Shown piece after piece: positions 3,551 through 32,003 of a DNA stretch of 64,000 bases (positions are counted from its first letter, which is position 1; every line of letters begins with the position of its first letter). The notes under the pieces were generated by a model that was not told where the DNA came from, ran no database searches, and saw only the letters and a program-made list of their open reading frames with translations. The stretch comes from Alphaproteobacteria bacterium (lineage in GTDB: Bacteria > Pseudomonadota > Alphaproteobacteria > JAPOUT01 > G958296285), in contig OZ242373.1 of the NCBI GenBank assembly GCA_965209065.1, positions 646,202-710,201 of the forward strand, given 5' to 3'. The translations under genes were made by a program, and so were the position numbers.

Positions 3551-5017
3551 TTAGGTTGTTTGCCTGACAAGTTTTTGTGAGTAAAACAATCGCCCCGAGC
3601 TCCACGTGCGCCACGCACCCCACACCAGAAATGCCGCGCCCACGCCCGCAACGCCATCGTTAAACATATTGACCGGTAAGCCTAATTGATTCCAAATGAT
3701 AACTGCGGATAATCCTGCTGCCATCATCGTGAGGGCGACATTTTGTTTTAATTCTTGACGCAGGCTCAACAACAAAAGCAAGGGAGCAAAAGCCGAACCC
3801 ATACCTGCCCACGCAAATTGCGTTAAACGAAAAACACTTTGTCCGCCGAAGACTATCGCATAGCCGGCAACCGCAAGCGCAAAAACTGTAATGCCTAACG
3901 TAGCAATCTGCATTTCTTTCTTTGTCTCAAATTTTCGCGGTAGAATATCGTGCGTCAAAGCGGACGAGCAACTCAAGAGCAAAGAATCGGCGGTGGACAT
4001 AATCGCCGCGAATATACCGGCGAGCATAACGCCGACCATAAACTCGGGCAATAATTTCGCCGCCATCGTAGGCAAAACCAGCTCCGCGTCCATAGTGCCT
4101 ATCTCAGGCAAATGGACGCGCGTCATCAACCCGACAACCATCGCAAATATAGCAAACAAAATATAAATGCCATAATACCAAACGCGCACCCTAACCAGCT
4201 GATTGCTATTCTCCATCGTCATAAAGCGCACCATAATGTGAGGCTGCCCGGCGGCGCAAAAACCCGAAACAATCCAACCAAAAACAAACAGGGGCGCGCC
4301 AACAAAAGAAAGAAAACTATCTTTTAAGGGCAGCGTGTCGTAGGGGAAGAGGTCTAAGAAATCGCCTTGCGCGGCAAGCGCTTGATAACTTGCGTCAATC
4401 CCCCCTGCCGCCGAGATAGCCGCAATGGATAAAACCGCCATCGATACCAACATCACTAAGGTTTGCGCCACATCCGTCCAAAGCGAAGCGCGAATGCCGC
4501 CCGACACACAATAGACCGCAACCATAATCGCTACGAGCGAAGCGCCCCAAATAGATGGCAGGTCAAACAAGGCTTCGAGCGATTTTCCCCCCGCATTAAA
4601 TTGCGCGGCGGCATAGATGCTCAAAAACATAAGAGAGGTGAGCGCAATCGCGAGGCGCACTACCTGCCAGTTGCCCTTGCCCCAGTTCGCAATCGCTTGC
4701 GCGAAAGTTAGCGAGCCTTGCTCCTCCGTAATCTTCCTCAGCTTGCGATGGACGAAAAGCGAAGTCGCGAAATCACCGACAATCCACCCGAAAAGCAACC
4801 ACGCCACCTCTAACCCAACCATATAGGTGTAGCCCATAAAAGCGACAAACATATAGCCGCTGTTATTCGTGCTCATCGCAGACAAGCCGACAAAAACCGG
4901 CGACACCGAGCGCGACGCAAGATAATAATCACTTGCGGTGCTCTTGCTCTTTAAGGTCGAGCTCACGCCAATCAGAAAGAACAGCGCCAAAAAAAGAATA
5001 AACGAGGCTAATATCAT
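3551..5017 (-). CDS. Sodium:solute symporter family transporter (PutP/PanF-like)
   Basis: 488 aa, about 13 hydrophobic segments, and an SSS-family signature region (GGIRASLWTDVAQ). Confidence 0.7.
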   Translation of the reverse strand: MILASFILFLALFFLIGVSSTLKSKSTASDYYLASRSVSPVFVGLSAMSTNNSGYMFVAFMGYTYMVGLEVAWLLFGWIVGDFATSLFVHRKLRKITEEQGSLTFAQAIANWGKGNWQVVRLAIALTSLMFLSIYAAAQFNAGGKSLEALFDLPSIWGASLVAIMVAVYCVSGGIRASLWTDVAQTLVMLVSMAVLSIAAISAAGGIDASYQALAAQGDFLDLFPYDTLPLKDSFLSFVGAPLFVFGWIVSGFCAAGQPHIMVRFMTMENSNQLVRVRVWYYGIYILFAIFAMVVGLMTRVHLPEIGTMDAELVLPTMAAKLLPEFMVGVMLAGIFAAIMSTADSLLLSCSSALTHDILPRKFETKKEMQIATLGITVFALAVAGYAIVFGGQSVFRLTQFAWAGMGSAFAPLLLLLSLRQELKQNVALTMMAAGLSAVIIWNQLGLPVNMFNDGVAGVGAAFLVWGAWRTWSSGRLFYSQKLVRQTT

Positions 5018-5058
5018 CTAAAACTCTAAAAAATTGATAATGCTAACCTAGCAAATTC

Positions 5059-5067
5059 TGCTATAAT
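5059..5067 (+). promoter_or_regulatory. Candidate extended -10 element (TGcTATAAT) for hspQ
   Basis: TGCTATAAT lies about 42 nt upstream of the hspQ ATG at 5109. There is a TTGATA hexamer upstream, but its spacing is poor. Confidence 0.3.
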
Positions 5068-5108
5068 TGGGTATGGTAATTTCGACTCAAATAATAGAGG
5101 GGTAGAAT

Positions 5109-5480
5109 ATGGATAAAATAGATAAAGAAGAAGAGTGCGATCCTAACATTGAAGGGCTCAGGCGGCGCGCCAAATTTTCGATTGGTCAGGTGGTTCGGCA
5201 CAGATTTTTTCCTTTCCGCGGCGTCATTTTTGATGTCGACCCCGTGTTCAATAATACTGAGGAGTGGTGGCTTTCTATTCCGCCGCAGATTCGCCCGAAA
5301 AAAGACCAGCCCTTCTATCATCTGCTCGCTGAGAACGATGATAACTCTTATGTCGCTTATGTTTCGGAGCAGAACCTCCTTGTCGATGACAGCGGACAGC
5401 CGGTAGATCACCCCAAAGTGCACGAGCTCTTCTTGCAAAATGAGGGCGATTATAAATTGCGCGGTGAAAACATTCATTAA
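5109..5480 (+). CDS. hspQ: Heat shock protein HspQ (YccV-like hemimethylated DNA-binding domain)
   Basis: 123 aa. FSIGQVVRHRFFPFRGVIFDVDPVF is the conserved HspQ/YccV core. Confidence 0.8.
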   Translation: MDKIDKEEECDPNIEGLRRRAKFSIGQVVRHRFFPFRGVIFDVDPVFNNTEEWWLSIPPQIRPKKDQPFYHLLAENDDNSYVAYVSEQNLLVDDSGQPVDHPKVHELFLQNEGDYKLRGENIH

Positions 5481-7173
5481 ATCGCTTTTTGTAGCTTTCC
5501 TTTTTCTTTTTTCTCATAACGATGGCTTTGCCTCGAGCGTGCGTCATTCAATCGCGATGTTTGGCGAGCCGCGTTATCGCGCGGAATTTTCTCACTTTGA
5601 TTATGTGAATCCCCACGCGCCGCGCGGCGGCGTGTTGAAGTTTTCGCAGCTTGGCACTTTTGACAGCCTCAACCCTTTAGCGCCGATTGGTGTTTCGGCT
5701 TTTGGTGTGCGTGAGCTTGTGTATGAAAGTTTGATGACGCGCTCGCTTGACGAGCCTTTTACGCTTTACGGCTTGTTAGCGGAAAAGGTTCAAGTTGCGG
5801 CGGATAGGAAGTCGGTTATTTGGTGGCTTCATCCTCGTGCGACATTTGCTGATGGCTCGCCGCTGCGTGTGGAGGATATTATTTTCTCCGCCGAAACTTT
5901 GCGCGAGCTTGGCAGACCCAATCATCGCTTTTACTATCGCCATATTGTGCGAATGGAGAAAATAGAAAAGCGAGCTATTCGTTTTACTTTTGACGAAAGC
6001 TCTAACTGGGAGATGCCTCTTATCATTGGGCTGATGCCGATTATTTCTAAAAAGCATTGGACGCGCCATCGTTTTGGCAAGGAGCGCGCGCGGACGCCCT
6101 TGGGTTCGGGTCCCTATCGCGTTGGCGAGATTGAGTTCGGCAAAAGGATAGTTTATACGCGCGATAAAAATTATTGGGGCAAGGATTTGGCGGTCAATCG
6201 CGGGCGTTATAATTTCAACCGCATTGAAATTGATTATTACCGCGACAATAGCGCGCGTTTTGAGGCTTTCAAGGCGGGTGCGTTTGATTTTTTTGAAGAG
6301 ACTTCGCCCACCCGCTGGGCGAAGGGCTATCAGTTTTCGCGGCTCAAACGCGGCGAGGTCGTCAAGAGGCAGTTCAGCTTAAAAACGCCTGCGCCAATGT
6401 GGGCGATTGCTTTCAATACGAGGCGGGCTTTATTTAAGAATAACGATGTGCGTCAAGCGCTCGCGCTTACTTTTGATGGCGCGTGGATAAATAAGAATTT
6501 GTTTTTCAGTTTGTGGCAACGCTCTTATAGTTTTTGGGGGCGGTCTAGTCTTGCGGGCAATTCACCAAAAGCAAGCGAGGCGAGCTTGCGCGAGCGCAAG
6601 CGCAAAGCCTTCGCTCTTTTCCAAAAAGCCGGTTGGCAAATTAAAAATAATAAATTAACGCAAATGAATGGCGAAGTTTTTACCTTCACGATTTTAGTCA
6701 AGACCCGCTTAAATGAACGGCTTGCGCTTGTTTGGGGTCGTCAGCTAAAGTCTTTTGGTATTCAGGCAGACATTCGCTTTATTGATGACAGCCAGTTCGA
6801 GCGGCGCAAGCAGAATTATGATTATGATGTTATTTTCGCGCACTGGTTTATGTCGCTGTCGCCGGGCAACGAGCAGGCTTACTACTGGAGCAGCGAGGCG
6901 GCGCGAACCAAAGGCAGCAGAAATTATGCGGGCGTGCGCTCTAGCGAGATTGACGGGCTTGTGAAGCAAATCAGCGATGCTAGAACGCGCGATGGGCTTG
7001 AACGCGCGGTCAAGCGGCTTGATAGGCTTTTGCTTCAGGGGCATTATGTCATTCCGCTATTTTTTGCCGAAAAGCAGTGGCTCGTGATGGATAAGAGGCT
7101 TAAAACGCCGCGCAAAGATAACTTTTACGGATACCGAATTGACACTTTATGGGATAGCGATAAAGCGAATTAA
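5440..7173 (+). CDS. Periplasmic substrate-binding protein, family 5 (YejA-like peptide/microcin C ABC transporter SBP), orphan
   Basis: 577 aa with an N-terminal signal peptide. [24 protein letters not shown] closely matches the E. coli YejA N-terminal region. The annotated start overlaps hspQ by 41 nt. No permease or ATPase genes are adjacent. Confidence 0.75.
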
Positions 7174-23480: not shown

Positions 23481-24214
23481 TGTTTTGCCTCGCTCGAATC
23501 TAGACTCTTAGAGTCAAGACTCTTAGAGTCGAGACTCTTAGGATCAACCGACAGCCCGATACCCATGGTTGAGCTAAGAGTTATCTTTTTAAGATACCCT
23601 CCTTTGGTAGCAGCAGGCTTGGCTTGAATAAGTTTATCAAGCAGCGCGCGCGCGTTGCCGAGAATGTTTTCTTCCGAGAAGCTCGCCTTGCCAATGCCGA
23701 CATGAATAATACCCGCTTTTTCTACACGAAACTCAACCGCGCCTTGCTTGATGGACTGAACCGTTTTTTCAACATCCATCGTGACCGTTCCGGTTTTAGG
23801 ATTTGGCATAAGACCGCGCGGTCCCAACACCTTGCCTAGCTTGCCGACAATCGGCATCATATCAGGCGTGGCGATACATCTATCAAAGTTAATCTCGCCC
23901 TTTTCTATTGTTTCTGCCAAATCCTCCGCGCCGATAATATCAGCGCCAGCGCTTTTCGCTTCGTCAGCCTTCGCCCCTTTAGCAAACACCGCAATACGCA
24001 CCGTCCGCCCCGAACCATGCGGTAATTCACACACACCGCGCACCATCTGGTCAGATTGCTTAGGGTCTATGCCGAGATTAACCGCCAAATCAATCGTTTC
24101 ATCAAATTTAGCGACAGCACTTTGCTTCACAAGCTGAACCGCTTTGACAAGGTCATAAAGTTCATCGTTTTCAATGCCCTCTCTTATTTTTTTGCTACGC
24201 TTACCTCTAATCAC
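23477..24214 (-). CDS. rplA: 50S ribosomal protein L1 with C-terminal repeat extension
   Basis: 245 aa. The conserved core ends ...[11 protein letters not shown] and is followed by [21 protein letters not shown]. Confidence 0.9.
23503..23547 (-). repeat. Three tandem 15-nt units, each containing the hairpin GACTCttaGAGTC, in-frame at the 3' end of rplA
   Basis: Read directly from the sequence: gactcttagagtcaa / gactcttagagtcga / gactcttaggatcaa. Confidence 0.85.
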
Positions 24215-25683: not shown

Positions 25684-26874
25684 CTATTCCAAAATTTTAG
25701 AAACGACACCCGCACCAATCGTGCGACCGCCCTCTCTAATAGCAAAGCGCAACTGCTCTTCCATCGCAATGGGAGCAATAAGCTGCACCTCCATCATGGC
25801 GTTATCACCGGGCATAACCATCTCGGTGCCCTCAGGCAGAGTGATTTCGCCAGTAACATCGGTCGTGCGGAAATAAAATTGAGGACGATACTTGCTAACG
25901 AAAGGCTTATGCCTGCCGCCCTCATCTTTCGTGAGAATATAGGCTTCAGCCGTAAATTTCGTGTGCGGCTTCACCGAACCCGGTGCCGCAAGCACTTGTC
26001 CGCGCTCTACTTCCTCGCGCTTCGTGCCGCGCAATAGAACGCCAACATTATCGCCCGCCTCGCCTTGGTCTAGCAGTTTGCGGAACATCTCCACGCCAGT
26101 GCAAGTCGTTTTGGTGGTGTCTTTGATGCCAATGATTTCAACCTCATCACCAACATTGATGATACCACGCTCAACACGCCCAGTAACAACCGTTCCGCGC
26201 CCTTCAATAGAGAACACATCTTCAATCGGCATAAGGAAAGGCTTGTCTTTCGGACGCTCAGGCTGAGGGATATAGTCATCAATCGCTTTCATCAGCTCCA
26301 TAATGGCTTCTTTGCCGATTTTGTCGTCGCGCCCTTCAAGAGCAGCAAGCGCCGAGCCTTTGATAATAGGAATATCATCGCCGGGGAAGTTGTAAGAAGA
26401 AAGCAACTCGCGCACCTCTACTTCCACAAGCTCCAGCAGCTCCTCGTCATCAACCTGATCCACCTTGTTTAGAAAAACACAAAGCGCAGGAACACCCACT
26501 TGTCGCGCCAAAAGAATATGCTCGCGCGTTTGAGGCATAGGACCATCAGCCGCCGAAACAACCAAAATGCCTCCGTCCATTTGCGCCGCACCGGTAATCA
26601 TGTTCTTCACATAGTCAGCATGACCCGGGCAATCAACATGCGCGTAGTGGCGGTTTTCGGTCTCATATTCCACGTGAGCCGTGGAAATAGTAATGCCACG
26701 CGCCTTTTCTTCGGGCGCCTTGTCGATGTCGTCATAGGCAGAGAACTCAGCCCCGCCCACATCAGCAAGCACCTTAGTTATCGCCGCGGTGAGCGTCGTC
26801 TTGCCATGGTCGACGTGCCCAATCGTGCCGATATTACAATGCGGTTTTGTCCGCTCAAATTTCTCTTTAGCCAT
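25684..26874 (-). CDS. tuf: Elongation factor Tu
   Basis: 396 aa. [23 protein letters not shown]-motifs; full-length EF-Tu. Confidence 0.97.
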
Positions 26875-26915
26875 ATTGTTCCTCGTTTGGTTAAGGGTTG
26901 GTGTTATATCAAAAA

Positions 26916-26989
26916 TGGAGCGGGCGAAGGGAATCGAACCCTCATCTTCAGCTTGGAAGGCTGCGGCTCTACCATTGAGCTACGCCCGC
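26916..26989 (-). tRNA. tRNA-Gly (anticodon UCC)
   Basis: The minus-strand sequence GCGGGCGTAGCTCAATGGTAGAGC...CTTCCAA...GGGTTCGATTCCC is closely similar to E. coli glyT. Confidence 0.85.
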
Positions 26990-27071
26990 ATAACCGAAAA
27001 AGGACGAATTCCGCTTTTGCCACCCATCTCGTTTTCTGCGAGCTTTCCTCACCCCAAGGGCTGCCTTGCTT

Positions 27072-27156
27072 TGGTGGAGGGAGTTGGATTTGAACCAACG
27101 TAGGCATAGCCAACGGGTTTACAGCCCGTCCCCTTTAACCACTCGGGCACCCCTCC
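27072..27156 (-). tRNA. tRNA-Tyr (anticodon GUA), long variable arm
   Basis: 85-nt class II tRNA with anticodon loop CTGTAAA. It is in the typical tyr-gly-tuf arrangement. Confidence 0.85.
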
Positions 27157-27436
27157 GATGAAGAGTCCACACAGAATTACTCGCTTTTAACCCTTTTTCG
27201 AGATTTTGTCAAGGGATTTTTGAGGATTTTTTGAGGAGTTTAACCTTTTAGAGCTGTAAAAATGGCAATTTGCTACCCTTATCCGCTAGATTTAGTTTGA
27301 GAACGAGTGCTGGGGTTGATAGAATCTAAGTGTGTTCATTACGACAGTGATTCTATCATTGGCAAGGTAAAAAATGCCCTATTAGATGTATGGTTAAATG
27401 GATAAGCAGGCAACTTACTAAAGAGCGAATGAAATA

Positions 27437-28648
27437 ATGCTACAAGTTTTACAACAAGATTTTGAAAATATAAAAGATCATTTTAACGAGCTTAATATGG
27501 ACGAATCTCATTTTGAAAATTCTAACGATATATGCACTCCATTAGAATGTGTCAAAGAGATGGTTGATGTTATCCCCAAAGAGTTTTGGAAAAGGAAAAG
27601 CCTTAAAATACTAGATAGTTGTTGTGGCAATGGAAATTTTCACGCTTACATCCAAACAAAAACAAATTTGAAAAATTTATACTTCAATGAGATAAACAAG
27701 AAACGGGTAAAAAATGCTCTAAATATATTTGGGGAAAGCATAAATATAACAACACAGGATTTCCTGTCATTTCCAGACAAAGAGGGATTTGATTTGGTCG
27801 TTTCAAATCCTCCTTATGCTAAATTTAATAATGGTATTAGGGTATCTAAAAATCATAACCTATCTAGAGATTTCATATTAAAAGCACTCAAAATCACTAA
27901 AATTAACGGATATATTTTATTTATTGCTCCAAATAATTGGATGTCGTTTTCCAATAGAAATTTATTACCGTCATTAATGAGTCAATATCAGTTTATCCAC
28001 TTAAACATCAATGGAGCAAAAAAATGGTTTCCAAAAGTTGGCTCATCTTTTACTTGGTTTCTATTGAAAAAAGTACCAAACAAGAAGCCCTTCAAAATAG
28101 AAAATGGCTATATTAAAAATGACATCCAACTTGCTAGACTAGATAGAGGTGTTAATTTTATCCCCCTTTATTATTCAAAAGAGACAAGAGCAATTTTTAA
28201 TAAAACCATCAACGCAAAAAATAAAAAGTATAAAATAGAGACTTCTAGTGATTTACATCATTATACAAAAAAGCACTTGTTGCGGGATAGCTCAAGCGAG
28301 AGATTTTGCTATAAACTAATCCATACTCCAACGCAAACCGCTTGGAGCTCTGTGCCTCATAAATATCAAACGGGATGGAAGGTTTTTATTTCCCTAACGA
28401 ATCAATACCAAACTTTCATAGATAATTGTGGAATGACGCAAAGCGTCGCATTTATTCGTTGTAAATCAAAAAAGGAGGCATTAAAGGTGGAAAAAGAATT
28501 GAATAATAATGTTTTTAAGTTCCTTAATAATTTAACACGATACGGCAATTTCAATAATGTTAAAGTATTACAACAATTTCCGCTTTTTTCTCAAGTTAGA
28601 TTAACTGACAAAGAAAAACTTTTTATTGAATATTTTTTAAGGACTTAA
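27437..28648 (+). CDS. N6-adenine DNA methyltransferase (gamma-class amino-MTase; motif I DSCCGNGNF, motif IV NPPY)
   Basis: 403 aa in a markedly AT-rich region. FxGxG-like motif I (LDSCCGNGNFHAY) and the catalytic NPPY; about 250 C-terminal aa are consistent with a target-recognition domain. Confidence 0.7.
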   Translation: MLQVLQQDFENIKDHFNELNMDESHFENSNDICTPLECVKEMVDVIPKEFWKRKSLKILDSCCGNGNFHAYIQTKTNLKNLYFNEINKKRVKNALNIFGESINITTQDFLSFPDKEGFDLVVSNPPYAKFNNGIRVSKNHNLSRDFILKALKITKINGYILFIAPNNWMSFSNRNLLPSLMSQYQFIHLNINGAKKWFPKVGSSFTWFLLKKVPNKKPFKIENGYIKNDIQLARLDRGVNFIPLYYSKETRAIFNKTINAKNKKYKIETSSDLHHYTKKHLLRDSSSERFCYKLIHTPTQTAWSSVPHKYQTGWKVFISLTNQYQTFIDNCGMTQSVAFIRCKSKKEALKVEKELNNNVFKFLNNLTRYGNFNNVKVLQQFPLFSQVRLTDKEKLFIEYFLRT

Positions 28649-28650
28649 CA

Positions 28651-29172
28651 ATGGCAAGTAAGTATAATAAAAATGATAGGCCATTAAAAAAGCTAGAAGA
28701 TTTATTTAATGAACTGAACTATAGCCAATTCCCTTATAAAAAGCACTTCATTCACTTGTGTAACATTACACCTGATGCTGAAAATGAAAAACTTGAAATA
28801 AAGAGTTTAGGAAATGATAAAAAGATTAATGATAAAGGTGTAGTATATGTCTTTGTTATAGGGAAAAAGATATTCAAGATAGGAAGTAGTACGGTTTCTA
28901 TAAAAGAAAGAATCGGCTCTTATAACTCTGGCAAAATTCTATACAGAGGGGCAGGAACTAACTCTACCACAAATTACTTTGTTCTACAAAGTTTTATTAA
29001 AATAGGCAAAGTCGTGAAAGTTTACGCCTACTTTCCCAATAAAAAACATTATACAATTTTTGGAGAAAAAGGGGTTGAAGCTTTCCCGCCCGCTAAAAAA
29101 ATAGAAAAAAAGATTTTAACTGATTTAAAGAAAAAATATGATCGTTTGCCAATAGGATGTAGCCAAAAATAA
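28651..29172 (+). CDS. Small GIY-YIG-like nuclease candidate (putative cognate restriction endonuclease)
   Basis: 173 aa, starting 2 nt after the MTase stop. GVVYVFVIGKKIFKIGSS...KERIGSY resembles the GIY...YIG...R core. Same low-GC composition as the MTase. Confidence 0.45.
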   Translation: MASKYNKNDRPLKKLEDLFNELNYSQFPYKKHFIHLCNITPDAENEKLEIKSLGNDKKINDKGVVYVFVIGKKIFKIGSSTVSIKERIGSYNSGKILYRGAGTNSTTNYFVLQSFIKIGKVVKVYAYFPNKKHYTIFGEKGVEAFPPAKKIEKKILTDLKKKYDRLPIGCSQK

Positions 29173-29313
29173 GAAAAACTAAAAACCTTACAAGATGCCC
29201 AGTATCTCCATGTCTAACAGCCTTGAAAATATAGCCTGAGTTGATTGCCTCTTGACAGAATGAAAAAAGCCCCTATCCTTACCCTTTAGGAATTTTTACC
29301 ACTCGGAGGAAAT

Positions 29314-30155: not shown

Positions 30156-31910
30156 ATGCAATTCAATCAAACACAAGGGGGAAAGTGTATGCCATCACCT
30201 GAAATCGAAAGCGGAAAAATATTGGTAAAGAAAATTTTCTCTGAACTATGGTTTCGCATCCCAGAATACCAACGCCCATACGTCTGGGGAAATGATGAAG
30301 TAAATAATTTGCTAGACGACATTTCCTATGCTATGCAAGGTGCGTCTGATTCTGAATACTTTTTGGGTTCCTTCGTTTATCAAACTAAACCACCTAATCC
30401 TGCTGCTAATATTCCATTTCAGGAGTATGATTTGCTAGATGGGCAGCAACGCATGATCACGCTTTTGTTGTTATTCTCTGTTATAAGGGATTTGACAAAA
30501 GATGAAGACGACAAAAAAGAATGTCAAAAGTGTATTTTTGTAGAAGCTGAACCTAGACGCAAGATTCCCGAGCGCTCTCGGATTACTTTTGGCATTCGCC
30601 AAGGCGCACAGAATTTTATTGAAACCCTAGTGAAGGAAAAAGGTTTTACCTTAAACAATGAATCACTAATGGACTATGAAAAATCAGGCAATGATACCAG
30701 CATCCAAAATATGGCTAAGGCTATTGGTTATATCAAAAAATTCTTTGCCAATAATACAAATATCAAATTTAATAAACTATTAGAATTTATTTTAAATAAA
30801 GTTTTACTGATCTATGTTTCTACCGAAAATCTAGATGATGCATTTCGGTTATTTACCATATTGAATGCTCGCGGCGTCTCCCTGCGTAATAGCGACATCT
30901 TGAAATCTATCAACCTTGGAGCTTTAACTACTGAGAAAGATAAAGAGAAATATGCTAAGCTTTGGGAAGATGCGGAAAGTGAATTAGGTGAAGAATTTGA
31001 CCGCTTCCTCCATTTCATTCGCACACTATTGGTAAAAGAAAAATCTCGCCTTAGCCTGTTGCAAGAGTTTGAAAATAAAATCTACAAACCTAAAAGCGCA
31101 GGGCAAAAGAAGCCATTACTAGCTAAAGGAAAAGCAACCTTCGAAATGGTGGATAAGCACTTAAAGCTATACCAGAAATTGTTCAATGATTCAAACTACG
31201 ATCTAACCAAAAGTTTTGAATTTGATAATCTTCTCAAAGTGATGAGAATTGGGATACCTTCTTCCGACTGGATTCCGCCATTGCTACATTATTACAATAA
31301 GTTTGGAAAAACGCGCCTCTATAATTTCTTGCAAATACTCGATAACAAGTTTTCAACAGATTGGATTATACGAGAAACACCAACGGCACGTACTGAGGCA
31401 ATGAATGCTGTTATCAAGGCTATTGACAAAAGTAAGACTGCCAATGATGTGTTCTATTCAAAAGACCTGAATATAATAGATTACGATGAGTTACAGCAAA
31501 CGCTAGAAAGCAAAATATATGGCAAGCCATTTGCTCGCTATATCCTTTTGAAGTTGGATTATCATTTCCGAAGCCATGATCAAAAAATGAACTTTGAGAC
31601 CTTATCCGTTGAGCATATACTTCCGCAAACTCCCAAATCAAGCAGTCAGTGGGTGAAAGATTTTAGTGAAGATGAAAGACTTGAGCTAACAAATACACTT
31701 GGTAATCTTGTATTGATTACACGTCGCAAAAACACATCTCAGGGGCGGCTTGATTACACGGAAAAGAAAAAACGCTATTTCGAGAAAAATATAGACACAT
31801 GCCCAAATTCTTTACGAGTTTTGCAAAAATACAACCAATGGACGCCTAAACAACTAAAAGAAAACCATAAGCTTGTTATCAAAAAACTCATGAAGTATTA
31901 TCCTCGCTAA
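30156..31910 (+). CDS. DUF262/DUF1524 two-domain protein (GmrSD-like type IV modification-dependent restriction enzyme family)
   Basis: 584 aa, AT-rich. N-terminal ParB/DUF262 motif (IPEYQRPYVWGNDEV; DGQQR). C-terminal DUF1524 His-Me finger-like region (SVEHILPQTP ... LGNLVLITRRKNTSQG). Confidence 0.7.
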   Translation: MQFNQTQGGKCMPSPEIESGKILVKKIFSELWFRIPEYQRPYVWGNDEVNNLLDDISYAMQGASDSEYFLGSFVYQTKPPNPAANIPFQEYDLLDGQQRMITLLLLFSVIRDLTKDEDDKKECQKCIFVEAEPRRKIPERSRITFGIRQGAQNFIETLVKEKGFTLNNESLMDYEKSGNDTSIQNMAKAIGYIKKFFANNTNIKFNKLLEFILNKVLLIYVSTENLDDAFRLFTILNARGVSLRNSDILKSINLGALTTEKDKEKYAKLWEDAESELGEEFDRFLHFIRTLLVKEKSRLSLLQEFENKIYKPKSAGQKKPLLAKGKATFEMVDKHLKLYQKLFNDSNYDLTKSFEFDNLLKVMRIGIPSSDWIPPLLHYYNKFGKTRLYNFLQILDNKFSTDWIIRETPTARTEAMNAVIKAIDKSKTANDVFYSKDLNIIDYDELQQTLESKIYGKPFARYILLKLDYHFRSHDQKMNFETLSVEHILPQTPKSSSQWVKDFSEDERLELTNTLGNLVLITRRKNTSQGRLDYTEKKKRYFEKNIDTCPNSLRVLQKYNQWTPKQLKENHKLVIKKLMKYYPR

Positions 31911-31926
31911 AATATAAGAGAAAAAT

Positions 31927-32003
<77 letters not shown>

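Follow-up and report, generated by a model that had tools for sequence, protein, structure and literature searches.

The restriction–modification (R–M) system Hpy188I of H. pylori contains a type IIP endonuclease, R.Hpy188I, which cuts DNA at TCN^GA (PMC3045582, PMC2630997). The Hpy188I family was described in 2008 (PMC2630997) and its crystallisation followed in 2010 (PMC3045582); function has been determined only for Hpy188I and HpyF17I (PMC2630997). The residues Y63, K73, R84, Y88, E149 and Q169 have been named as catalytic in Hpy188I (PMC3045582, PMC2630997). In the crystals, the hairpin at the C-terminus, together with the helix bearing the glutamate, is domain-swapped between the subunits, and the target is read by a small set of contacts, i.e. 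Ser87 to N6 and N7 of adenine (the basis of sensitivity to N6-methyladenine, m6A), the main chain of Thr100 to cytosine, Ser102 to guanine N7 and Gln169 to adenine N3 (PMC3045582). Cys90 intercalates into the DNA and contacts no base edge, and His76 acts mostly via its main chain; only in the product complex does its side chain join the metal sphere (PMC3045582).

Here, this system is compared with two adjacent genes near the middle of the window, i.e. the whole 64-kb stretch of alphaproteobacterial DNA that was analysed, which we designate M (methyltransferase) and R (endonuclease). As an intact full-length relative of Hpy188I behind a matching methylase, R is an ordinary addition to a known and structurally characterised family and not the novel enzyme that a sequence-only reading of the same DNA had proposed. 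Judged by homology, positions 27437–29172 as a whole probably represent an intact two-gene type IIP R–M system of the Hpy188I family with specificity for TCNGA.

The endonuclease gene and its methyltransferase partner

R is a 173-codon open reading frame on the forward strand (28651–29172) that begins with ATG at 28651, ends with a TAA at 29172 and is full length, without frameshift or premature stop codon. The sequence-only reading had described this frame, from ATG to TAA behind a methyltransferase gene, just as it is found here, but it had also called it unannotatable, which does not agree with the outcome of ordinary searches. In a phmmer search of PDB sequences, R.Hpy188I (PDB 3OQG/3OR3) is the single strong match and aligns end to end with an E-value of 1.5e-45 (query residues 6–172 against residues 14–179 of chain 3OQG_A); the PADLOC type II endonuclease model PDLC03493 (REase_II) is matched at model positions 4–169 of 170 with an E-value of 1.9e-49; and the Pfam domain T5orf172, which we take to be a member of the GIY-YIG clan, scores 22.9 bits with a gathering score of 20. 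R also matches a PHROGs phage ‘endonuclease’ family (E 4e-07). No NCBIfam match was obtained for R, which says nothing for novelty because this library has no model for the protein. The identity to Hpy188I is approximately 53–55%. There can be hardly any doubt that R is the gene of an Hpy188I-family restriction endonuclease, an assignment supported by phmmer, PADLOC, Pfam and the AlphaFold/Foldseek comparison described below, with TCN^GA as its predicted cleavage site.

The alignment with Hpy188I also accounts for those parts of the protein that had seemed unfamiliar. Residues 63–87 carry GVVYVFVIGKKIFKIGSS...R, i.e. the GIY-YIG hairpin plus the arginine helix, and this stretch aligns with ‘LVY...KIG...R84’ of Hpy188I; the GIY-YIG signature noted previously is thus indeed present, but to see only a weak signature here understates a relationship to R.Hpy188I that a plain search finds over the full length of the protein. 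What had been taken for a novel Lys/Asn-rich tail (residues 120–172) aligns, residue by residue, with the C-terminal hairpin and glutamate helix of Hpy188I, including E149 and Q169. Nor is R unusually small, as had been suspected: Hpy188I itself has 170 residues (counted as the 180-residue 3OQG chain minus a 10-residue tag), and most of the 92 homologues are between 162 and 181 residues long.

Structure prediction, which had been put forward as a check for a GIY-YIG fold, came out clearly in favour of it. An AlphaFold2 model of R, built on a 48-sequence alignment, has a mean pLDDT of 93 and a pTM of 0.88, and Foldseek places the Hpy188I structures 3OQG and 3OR3 at the top of its PDB matches (E 3e-20, TM 0.79, 173 aligned columns); T4 endonuclease II comes next (E 4e-06), and UvrC GIY-YIG domains match only weakly (E ~0.5). 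According to this model, R would share the GIY-YIG fold of Hpy188I together with the family-specific N-terminal hairpin, the hairpin at the C-terminus and the Glu helix. The global rmsd between model and crystal is 12.5 Å, likely because the crystal dimer is domain-swapped, whereas the model is a monomer folded back on itself.

All six active-site residues of Hpy188I are present in R, and in the 48-homologue alignment no more than one of the 48 sequences deviates in any of the corresponding columns. The numbering of R equals native Hpy188I numbering plus 3 after a single alignment gap (the PDB chain carries its tag of 10 residues at the N-terminus), so that Tyr63, the GIY tyrosine and general base, corresponds to Y66; Lys73, which replaces the YIG tyrosine, to K76; Arg84, which positions water and phosphate, to R87; Tyr88, which assists Tyr63, to Y91; Glu149, the metal ligand supplied in trans, to E152; and Gln169, a predicted active-site residue that touches N3 of adenine when the substrate is bound, to Q172. 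The four residues that contact the bases of TCNGA, i.e. S87, T100, S102 and Q169 in Hpy188I, are likewise all kept, as S90, T103, S105 and Q172. Two other residues of interest are exchanged: His76 of Hpy188I is Ser79 in R, in a column with 26 His, 14 Gln and 8 Ser, and Cys90 is Ser93, in a column with 39 Cys, 3 Ser and 2 each of Thr, Ala and Gly (48 sequences in both cases). Since both columns vary across the family, these exchanges are probably tolerated; the asparagine found in place of Cys101 is the residue carried by the majority of the family.

The gene directly upstream, M (27437–28648, forward strand), encodes a 403-residue N6-adenine DNA methyltransferase of the gamma class and is an orthologue of M.Hpy188I. 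Motif I (DSCCGNGNF) precedes motif IV (NPPY, residues 124–127), which is the gamma-class order, and the protein matches the Pfam families Eco57I, MTS and N6_Mtase as well as the PADLOC model MTase_II PDLC03273 (E 6e-166). Over 395 residues it is 60% identical (E 1e-178) to a 432-residue Helicobacter methyltransferase (locus L030, assembly GCA_040847605.1), with similarity extending across the C-terminal target-recognition part. Just downstream of this Helicobacter gene lies an hpy188IR allele with a frameshift; the intact part of the allele has the same sequence as the Hpy188I that was crystallised. At the junction between M and R in the window (28638–28653, forward strand, as read from the sequence), a Shine–Dalgarno-like AAGGA motif lies 8 nt upstream of the ATG of R and inside the end of the M gene; the TAA stop codon of M (28646–28648) is separated by a 2-nt spacer from the start of R. 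In related loci, the frame of M continues past the start codon of R, with an overlap of 53 nt in L030, and both the short gap and the overlap are compatible with translational coupling of M and R.

This gene pair recurs in the family. In 27 of 27 related loci in the genome collection, an M homologue is found directly upstream of the R homologue on the same strand, and in 19 of these the M and R alignments are equally spaced. The loci come from at least eight bacterial lineages, with hosts among the Rickettsiales and other Alphaproteobacteria, Campylobacter/Helicobacter, Gammaproteobacteria, Rhodocyclales, Bacteroidia, Elusimicrobia, Bacilli, SAR324 and Limisphaerales. R genes of this family have decayed in some hosts, as seen in the frameshifted 154-residue Helicobacter alleles P0081–P0088. 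Homology to Hpy188I, predicted fold, catalytic residues and this synteny all support the view, already held in the sequence-only reading, that R encodes a restriction endonuclease of the GIY-YIG type, cognate to the methyltransferase encoded upstream.

Predicted mechanism and specificity

By analogy with Hpy188I, the gamma-class enzyme M would protect the DNA of its host through N6-methylation of the adenine in TCNGA, and R, as a small homodimeric GIY-YIG endonuclease, would cut unmethylated TCN^GA to leave 1-nt 3' overhangs. Catalysis should proceed with one metal as in the Hpy188I crystals, with Tyr66 acting as the general base and Tyr91 assisting, Lys76 standing in place of the YIG tyrosine, Arg87 positioning water and phosphate, and Glu152 from the partner's domain-swapped C-terminal helix holding the metal in trans. 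The bases would be read by Ser90, Thr103, Ser105 and Gln172, and methylated DNA would be protected because Ser90 would clash with N6-methyladenine. Expression from a single operon in the order M then R, with the ribosome-binding site of R buried in the end of M, may ensure that the methylase is made no later than the nuclease.

The specificity of R, which had previously been listed as unknown, can be predicted to be TCNGA from the conserved contact residues, and there is a good chance that R is an active enzyme with exactly this specificity. One might object that R is only about 53–55% identical to Hpy188I in a family with function determined only for Hpy188I and HpyF17I (PMC2630997), and that its closest relatives, P0002, P0003 and P0005 (58–60% identity), share with it Ser79 and a residue other than Cys at 93; the locus could then be a true Hpy188I-family R–M system with a specificity that has drifted off TCNGA, for example to a related pseudopalindrome of 4–5 bp, in a Ser76/Ser90 subclade (Hpy188I numbering). 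However, the base contacts seen in the crystal are all unchanged, Cys90 touches no base edge, M resembles its Helicobacter counterpart right through the target-recognition part and the host window is poor in TCNGA, and we regard such drift as improbable.

The depletion of TCNGA was quantified for the whole window. The site occurs 75 times, whereas 194 ± 14 occurrences are expected from dinucleotide-preserving shuffles; it shows the third lowest ratio of observed to expected counts among the 256 words of the form XYNZW, with ratios of 0.38–0.53 under Markov models of order 1, 2 and 3. This depletion agrees with prolonged exposure to an enzyme specific for TCNGA, but as evidence it is non-specific, because many palindromes are avoided more strongly. 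Among the 4-bp palindromes, GGCC is found 10 times instead of the expected 223 (a ratio of 0.04), GTAC 4 times instead of 59 (0.07) and GATC 24 times instead of 218 (0.11); TGCA (0.37) and CATG (0.44) are avoided as well. The same holds for GGNCC and CCNGG. The cassette itself contains no TCNGA, with 4.3 sites expected, but this was dropped as evidence for specificity since self-avoidance is not a trait of the family: in the M–R cassettes of 24 relatives no avoidance of the own site was seen, with TCNGA found 70 times versus 85.7 expected and ranking 67th of the 256 words. As an observation in its own right, the extreme avoidance of palindromes over positions 1–64000 suggests a lineage that is under heavy pressure from many R–M systems.

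It also seems improbable that the endonuclease gene, although intact in sequence, is silent or attenuated and that the locus is in effect a solitary methylase. R genes in Helicobacter are indeed often inactivated, e.g. in the 154-residue frameshift alleles, and R carries the exchanges corresponding to H76S and C90S. Yet Ser at 76 and a residue other than Cys at 90 (Hpy188I numbering) recur in several intact homologues, the frame is full length and uninterrupted with all catalytic residues kept, the ribosome-binding site and the coupling geometry are intact, and two assemblies of the locus differ in R by a single conservative change, D158E. That R could be a free-standing GIY-YIG/T5orf172 nuclease with some other role (homing, phage or repair), located next to a methylase by chance, is most improbable, since the generic nature of the T5orf172 match and the PHROGs match stand against an Hpy188I match that spans the whole protein with its N-terminal hairpin and domain-swapped C-terminus, the lack of a separate DNA-binding domain of the homing GIY-YIG type, a methyltransferase partner in 27 of 27 loci and surroundings free of intron, intein or phage elements. 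Identification of R as a homing endonuclease or a generic T5orf172 protein was rejected in view of its full-length Hpy188I homology and invariant methyltransferase partner.

An active, TCNGA-specific Hpy188I-type system is the reading we prefer. The gain for enzymology is small, because family, fold, mechanism and gene organisation of Hpy188I have been known since 2000–2010. Confident annotation becomes possible, however, with R as an Hpy188I-like GIY-YIG restriction endonuclease and M as an N6-adenine methyltransferase predicted to methylate TCNGA, and this annotation predicts a TCNGA m6A mark as well as a transformation barrier in an uncultured alphaproteobacterial lineage.

The exchangeable cassette and its host

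The stretch that contains M and R has a GC content of approximately 29–31%, as compared with approximately 50–58% for the tuf, tRNA and SDR genes on its flanks and approximately 50% for the host. The exact sequence of the R protein matched no contig in a look-up, but that of the neighbouring EF-Tu led to two, L028 and L029, both belonging to a single metagenome (ENA ERZ25069786). The cassette of L028 is the same, with M identical and R different only by the D158E exchange. L029 matches the window at 99.5% identity up to position 27333 and at 98.9% identity from 29245 on, but at the same site (4650–6459 in reverse complement) carries an unrelated R–M cassette of 1810 bp and 38% GC, which encodes a 265-residue D12-class N6-adenine methyltransferase and a 294-residue endonuclease of the Pfam family RE_HaeIII. 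Because a sister strain has a different R–M pair in this place, 27334–29244 can be seen as one allele of a swappable R–M slot, i.e. as a whole exchangeable cassette, with 31% GC and with its limits set by the sister-strain comparison. Direct or inverted repeats, integrase genes and transposase genes were looked for on both flanks of the cassette and none was convincing. L029 and the window thus represent an allelic replacement of R–M cassettes without repeats or recombinase.

A tRNA-Tyr gene (27072–27156, reverse strand) lies just to the left of the cassette. One could go further and imagine that tRNA-Tyr and the SDR gene enclose a dedicated slot fed by a host promoter, at which co-existing strains of one alphaproteobacterium swap whole R–M cassettes with identical junctions and without recombinase or repeats, but we consider this unlikely; within such a scenario, R might represent a Ser76/Ser90 subclade of Hpy188I enzymes with altered DNA distortion or specificity. 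A consensus scan found a sigma-70-like promoter site (TTGAGA, 17 nt, TG-TAGAAT) at 27297–27325 on the forward strand, in the flank common to L029 and just upstream of the cassette boundary. It may drive the M–R operon, a weak suggestion because the scan performed at chance level, with 9 sites in the region against 8.4 expected. A terminator scan downstream of R, also at chance level, found none.

Between positions 24000 and 29874, the window and L028 show 25 differences. None of them falls in 26681–29123, whereas the 2.7 kb on its left contain 14 and the 0.6 kb on its right contain 8. The difference-free segment comprises the tRNA genes, the left flank and almost the entire cassette. One possible cause of this uneven distribution is that the cassette has recently spread through the population by recombination.

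The small-genome host is an alphaproteobacterium that is uncultured; identical proteins are encoded on a 1.69-Mb contig, and its NusG is only 63–68% identical to that of the closest genera with names, Tepidicaulis, Minwuia and Parvibaculum. Several other features of the neighbourhood were observed alongside. Between the SDR gene and a tRNA-Met gene (31927–32003), a gene of approximately 36% GC (30156–31910, forward strand) encodes a 584-residue type IV modification-dependent restriction enzyme of the GmrSD type (DUF262 plus DUF1524), which matches Pfam GmrSD_N (1.7e-34) and GmrSD_C (4e-20) as well as PADLOC Orf5/HEC-06 and which, with the R–M cassette, forms a small tRNA-flanked defence islet. 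Further on, an open reading frame for 1488 amino acids (32061–36527, reverse strand) has a repetitive, beta-helix-like sequence and an N-terminus that, by eye, resembles a filamentous-haemagglutinin secretion domain. On the other side, the gene for ribosomal protein L1 (23477–24214, reverse strand) ends in a tandem peptide repeat (SLDSK, three times); L1 has 245 residues in the window and 235 in L029, and the number of repeats probably varies between strains.

The sister-strain allele and the avoidance of palindromes mark this lineage as being under heavy and strain-variable R–M pressure, a point of interest to strain-resolved metagenomics and to binning that makes use of methylation. Overall, the strain-variable R–M slot together with the palindrome avoidance is more noteworthy than the R gene as such.

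Comparison with known GIY-YIG nucleases

Homing enzymes of the I-TevI type consist of a GIY-YIG domain at the N-terminus and, joined to it by a tether, a separate C-terminal DNA-binding domain, and are encoded within introns or as free-standing phage genes. In contrast, R is a single domain of 173 residues with wholly the fold of Hpy188I, and its gene is chromosomal and located beside a methyltransferase gene, with no intron or phage genes around it. T4 endonuclease II (2WSH), the N-terminal domain of UvrC (1YD0 and related PDB entries) and Eco29kI have the same core of beta-hairpin, arginine helix and glutamate helix and use the same one-metal chemistry. However, they are only 13–19% identical, differ in oligomerisation and in the elements that recognise DNA, and are devoid of the N-terminal hairpin and the domain-swapped C-terminus that are specific to Hpy188I.

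The R.HpyAORF481P branch of the Hpy188I family is similar in belonging to the same family of GIY-YIG restriction endonucleases, in small size and in linkage to an adenine methyltransferase (PMC2630997). In this branch, the phosphate-binding arginine has moved to position 104/105 and the associated methyltransferases are of the alpha class (D12; PMC2630997), whereas R has its arginine at the equivalent of position 84 (R87), with T107 and N108 at 104/105, and a gamma-class methyltransferase. Because of this orthodox arginine and the gamma-class partner, R belongs to the R.Hpy188I and not to the R.HpyAORF481P branch.

Even within the R.Hpy188I branch there are differences: identity to R.Hpy188I is only about 53%, with His76 and Cys90 replaced by Ser and Cys101 by Asn; M has 403 instead of 432 residues and stops 2 nt before R instead of overlapping it by 53 nt; and the host is an uncultured small-genome alphaproteobacterium and not a member of the Campylobacterota. 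What the two systems have in common, however, extends from the fold and length class of the endonuclease (173 versus 170 residues), with its unusual ‘xVY...KIG’ variant of the GIY-YIG motif in which Lys takes the place of the YIG tyrosine, through the orthodox Arg84 that marks the branch, Tyr88, Glu149, Gln169 and the base contacts, to the gamma-class N6-adenine methyltransferase partner (60% identity), the order M then R, the putatively coupled junction and the location in a low-GC cassette.
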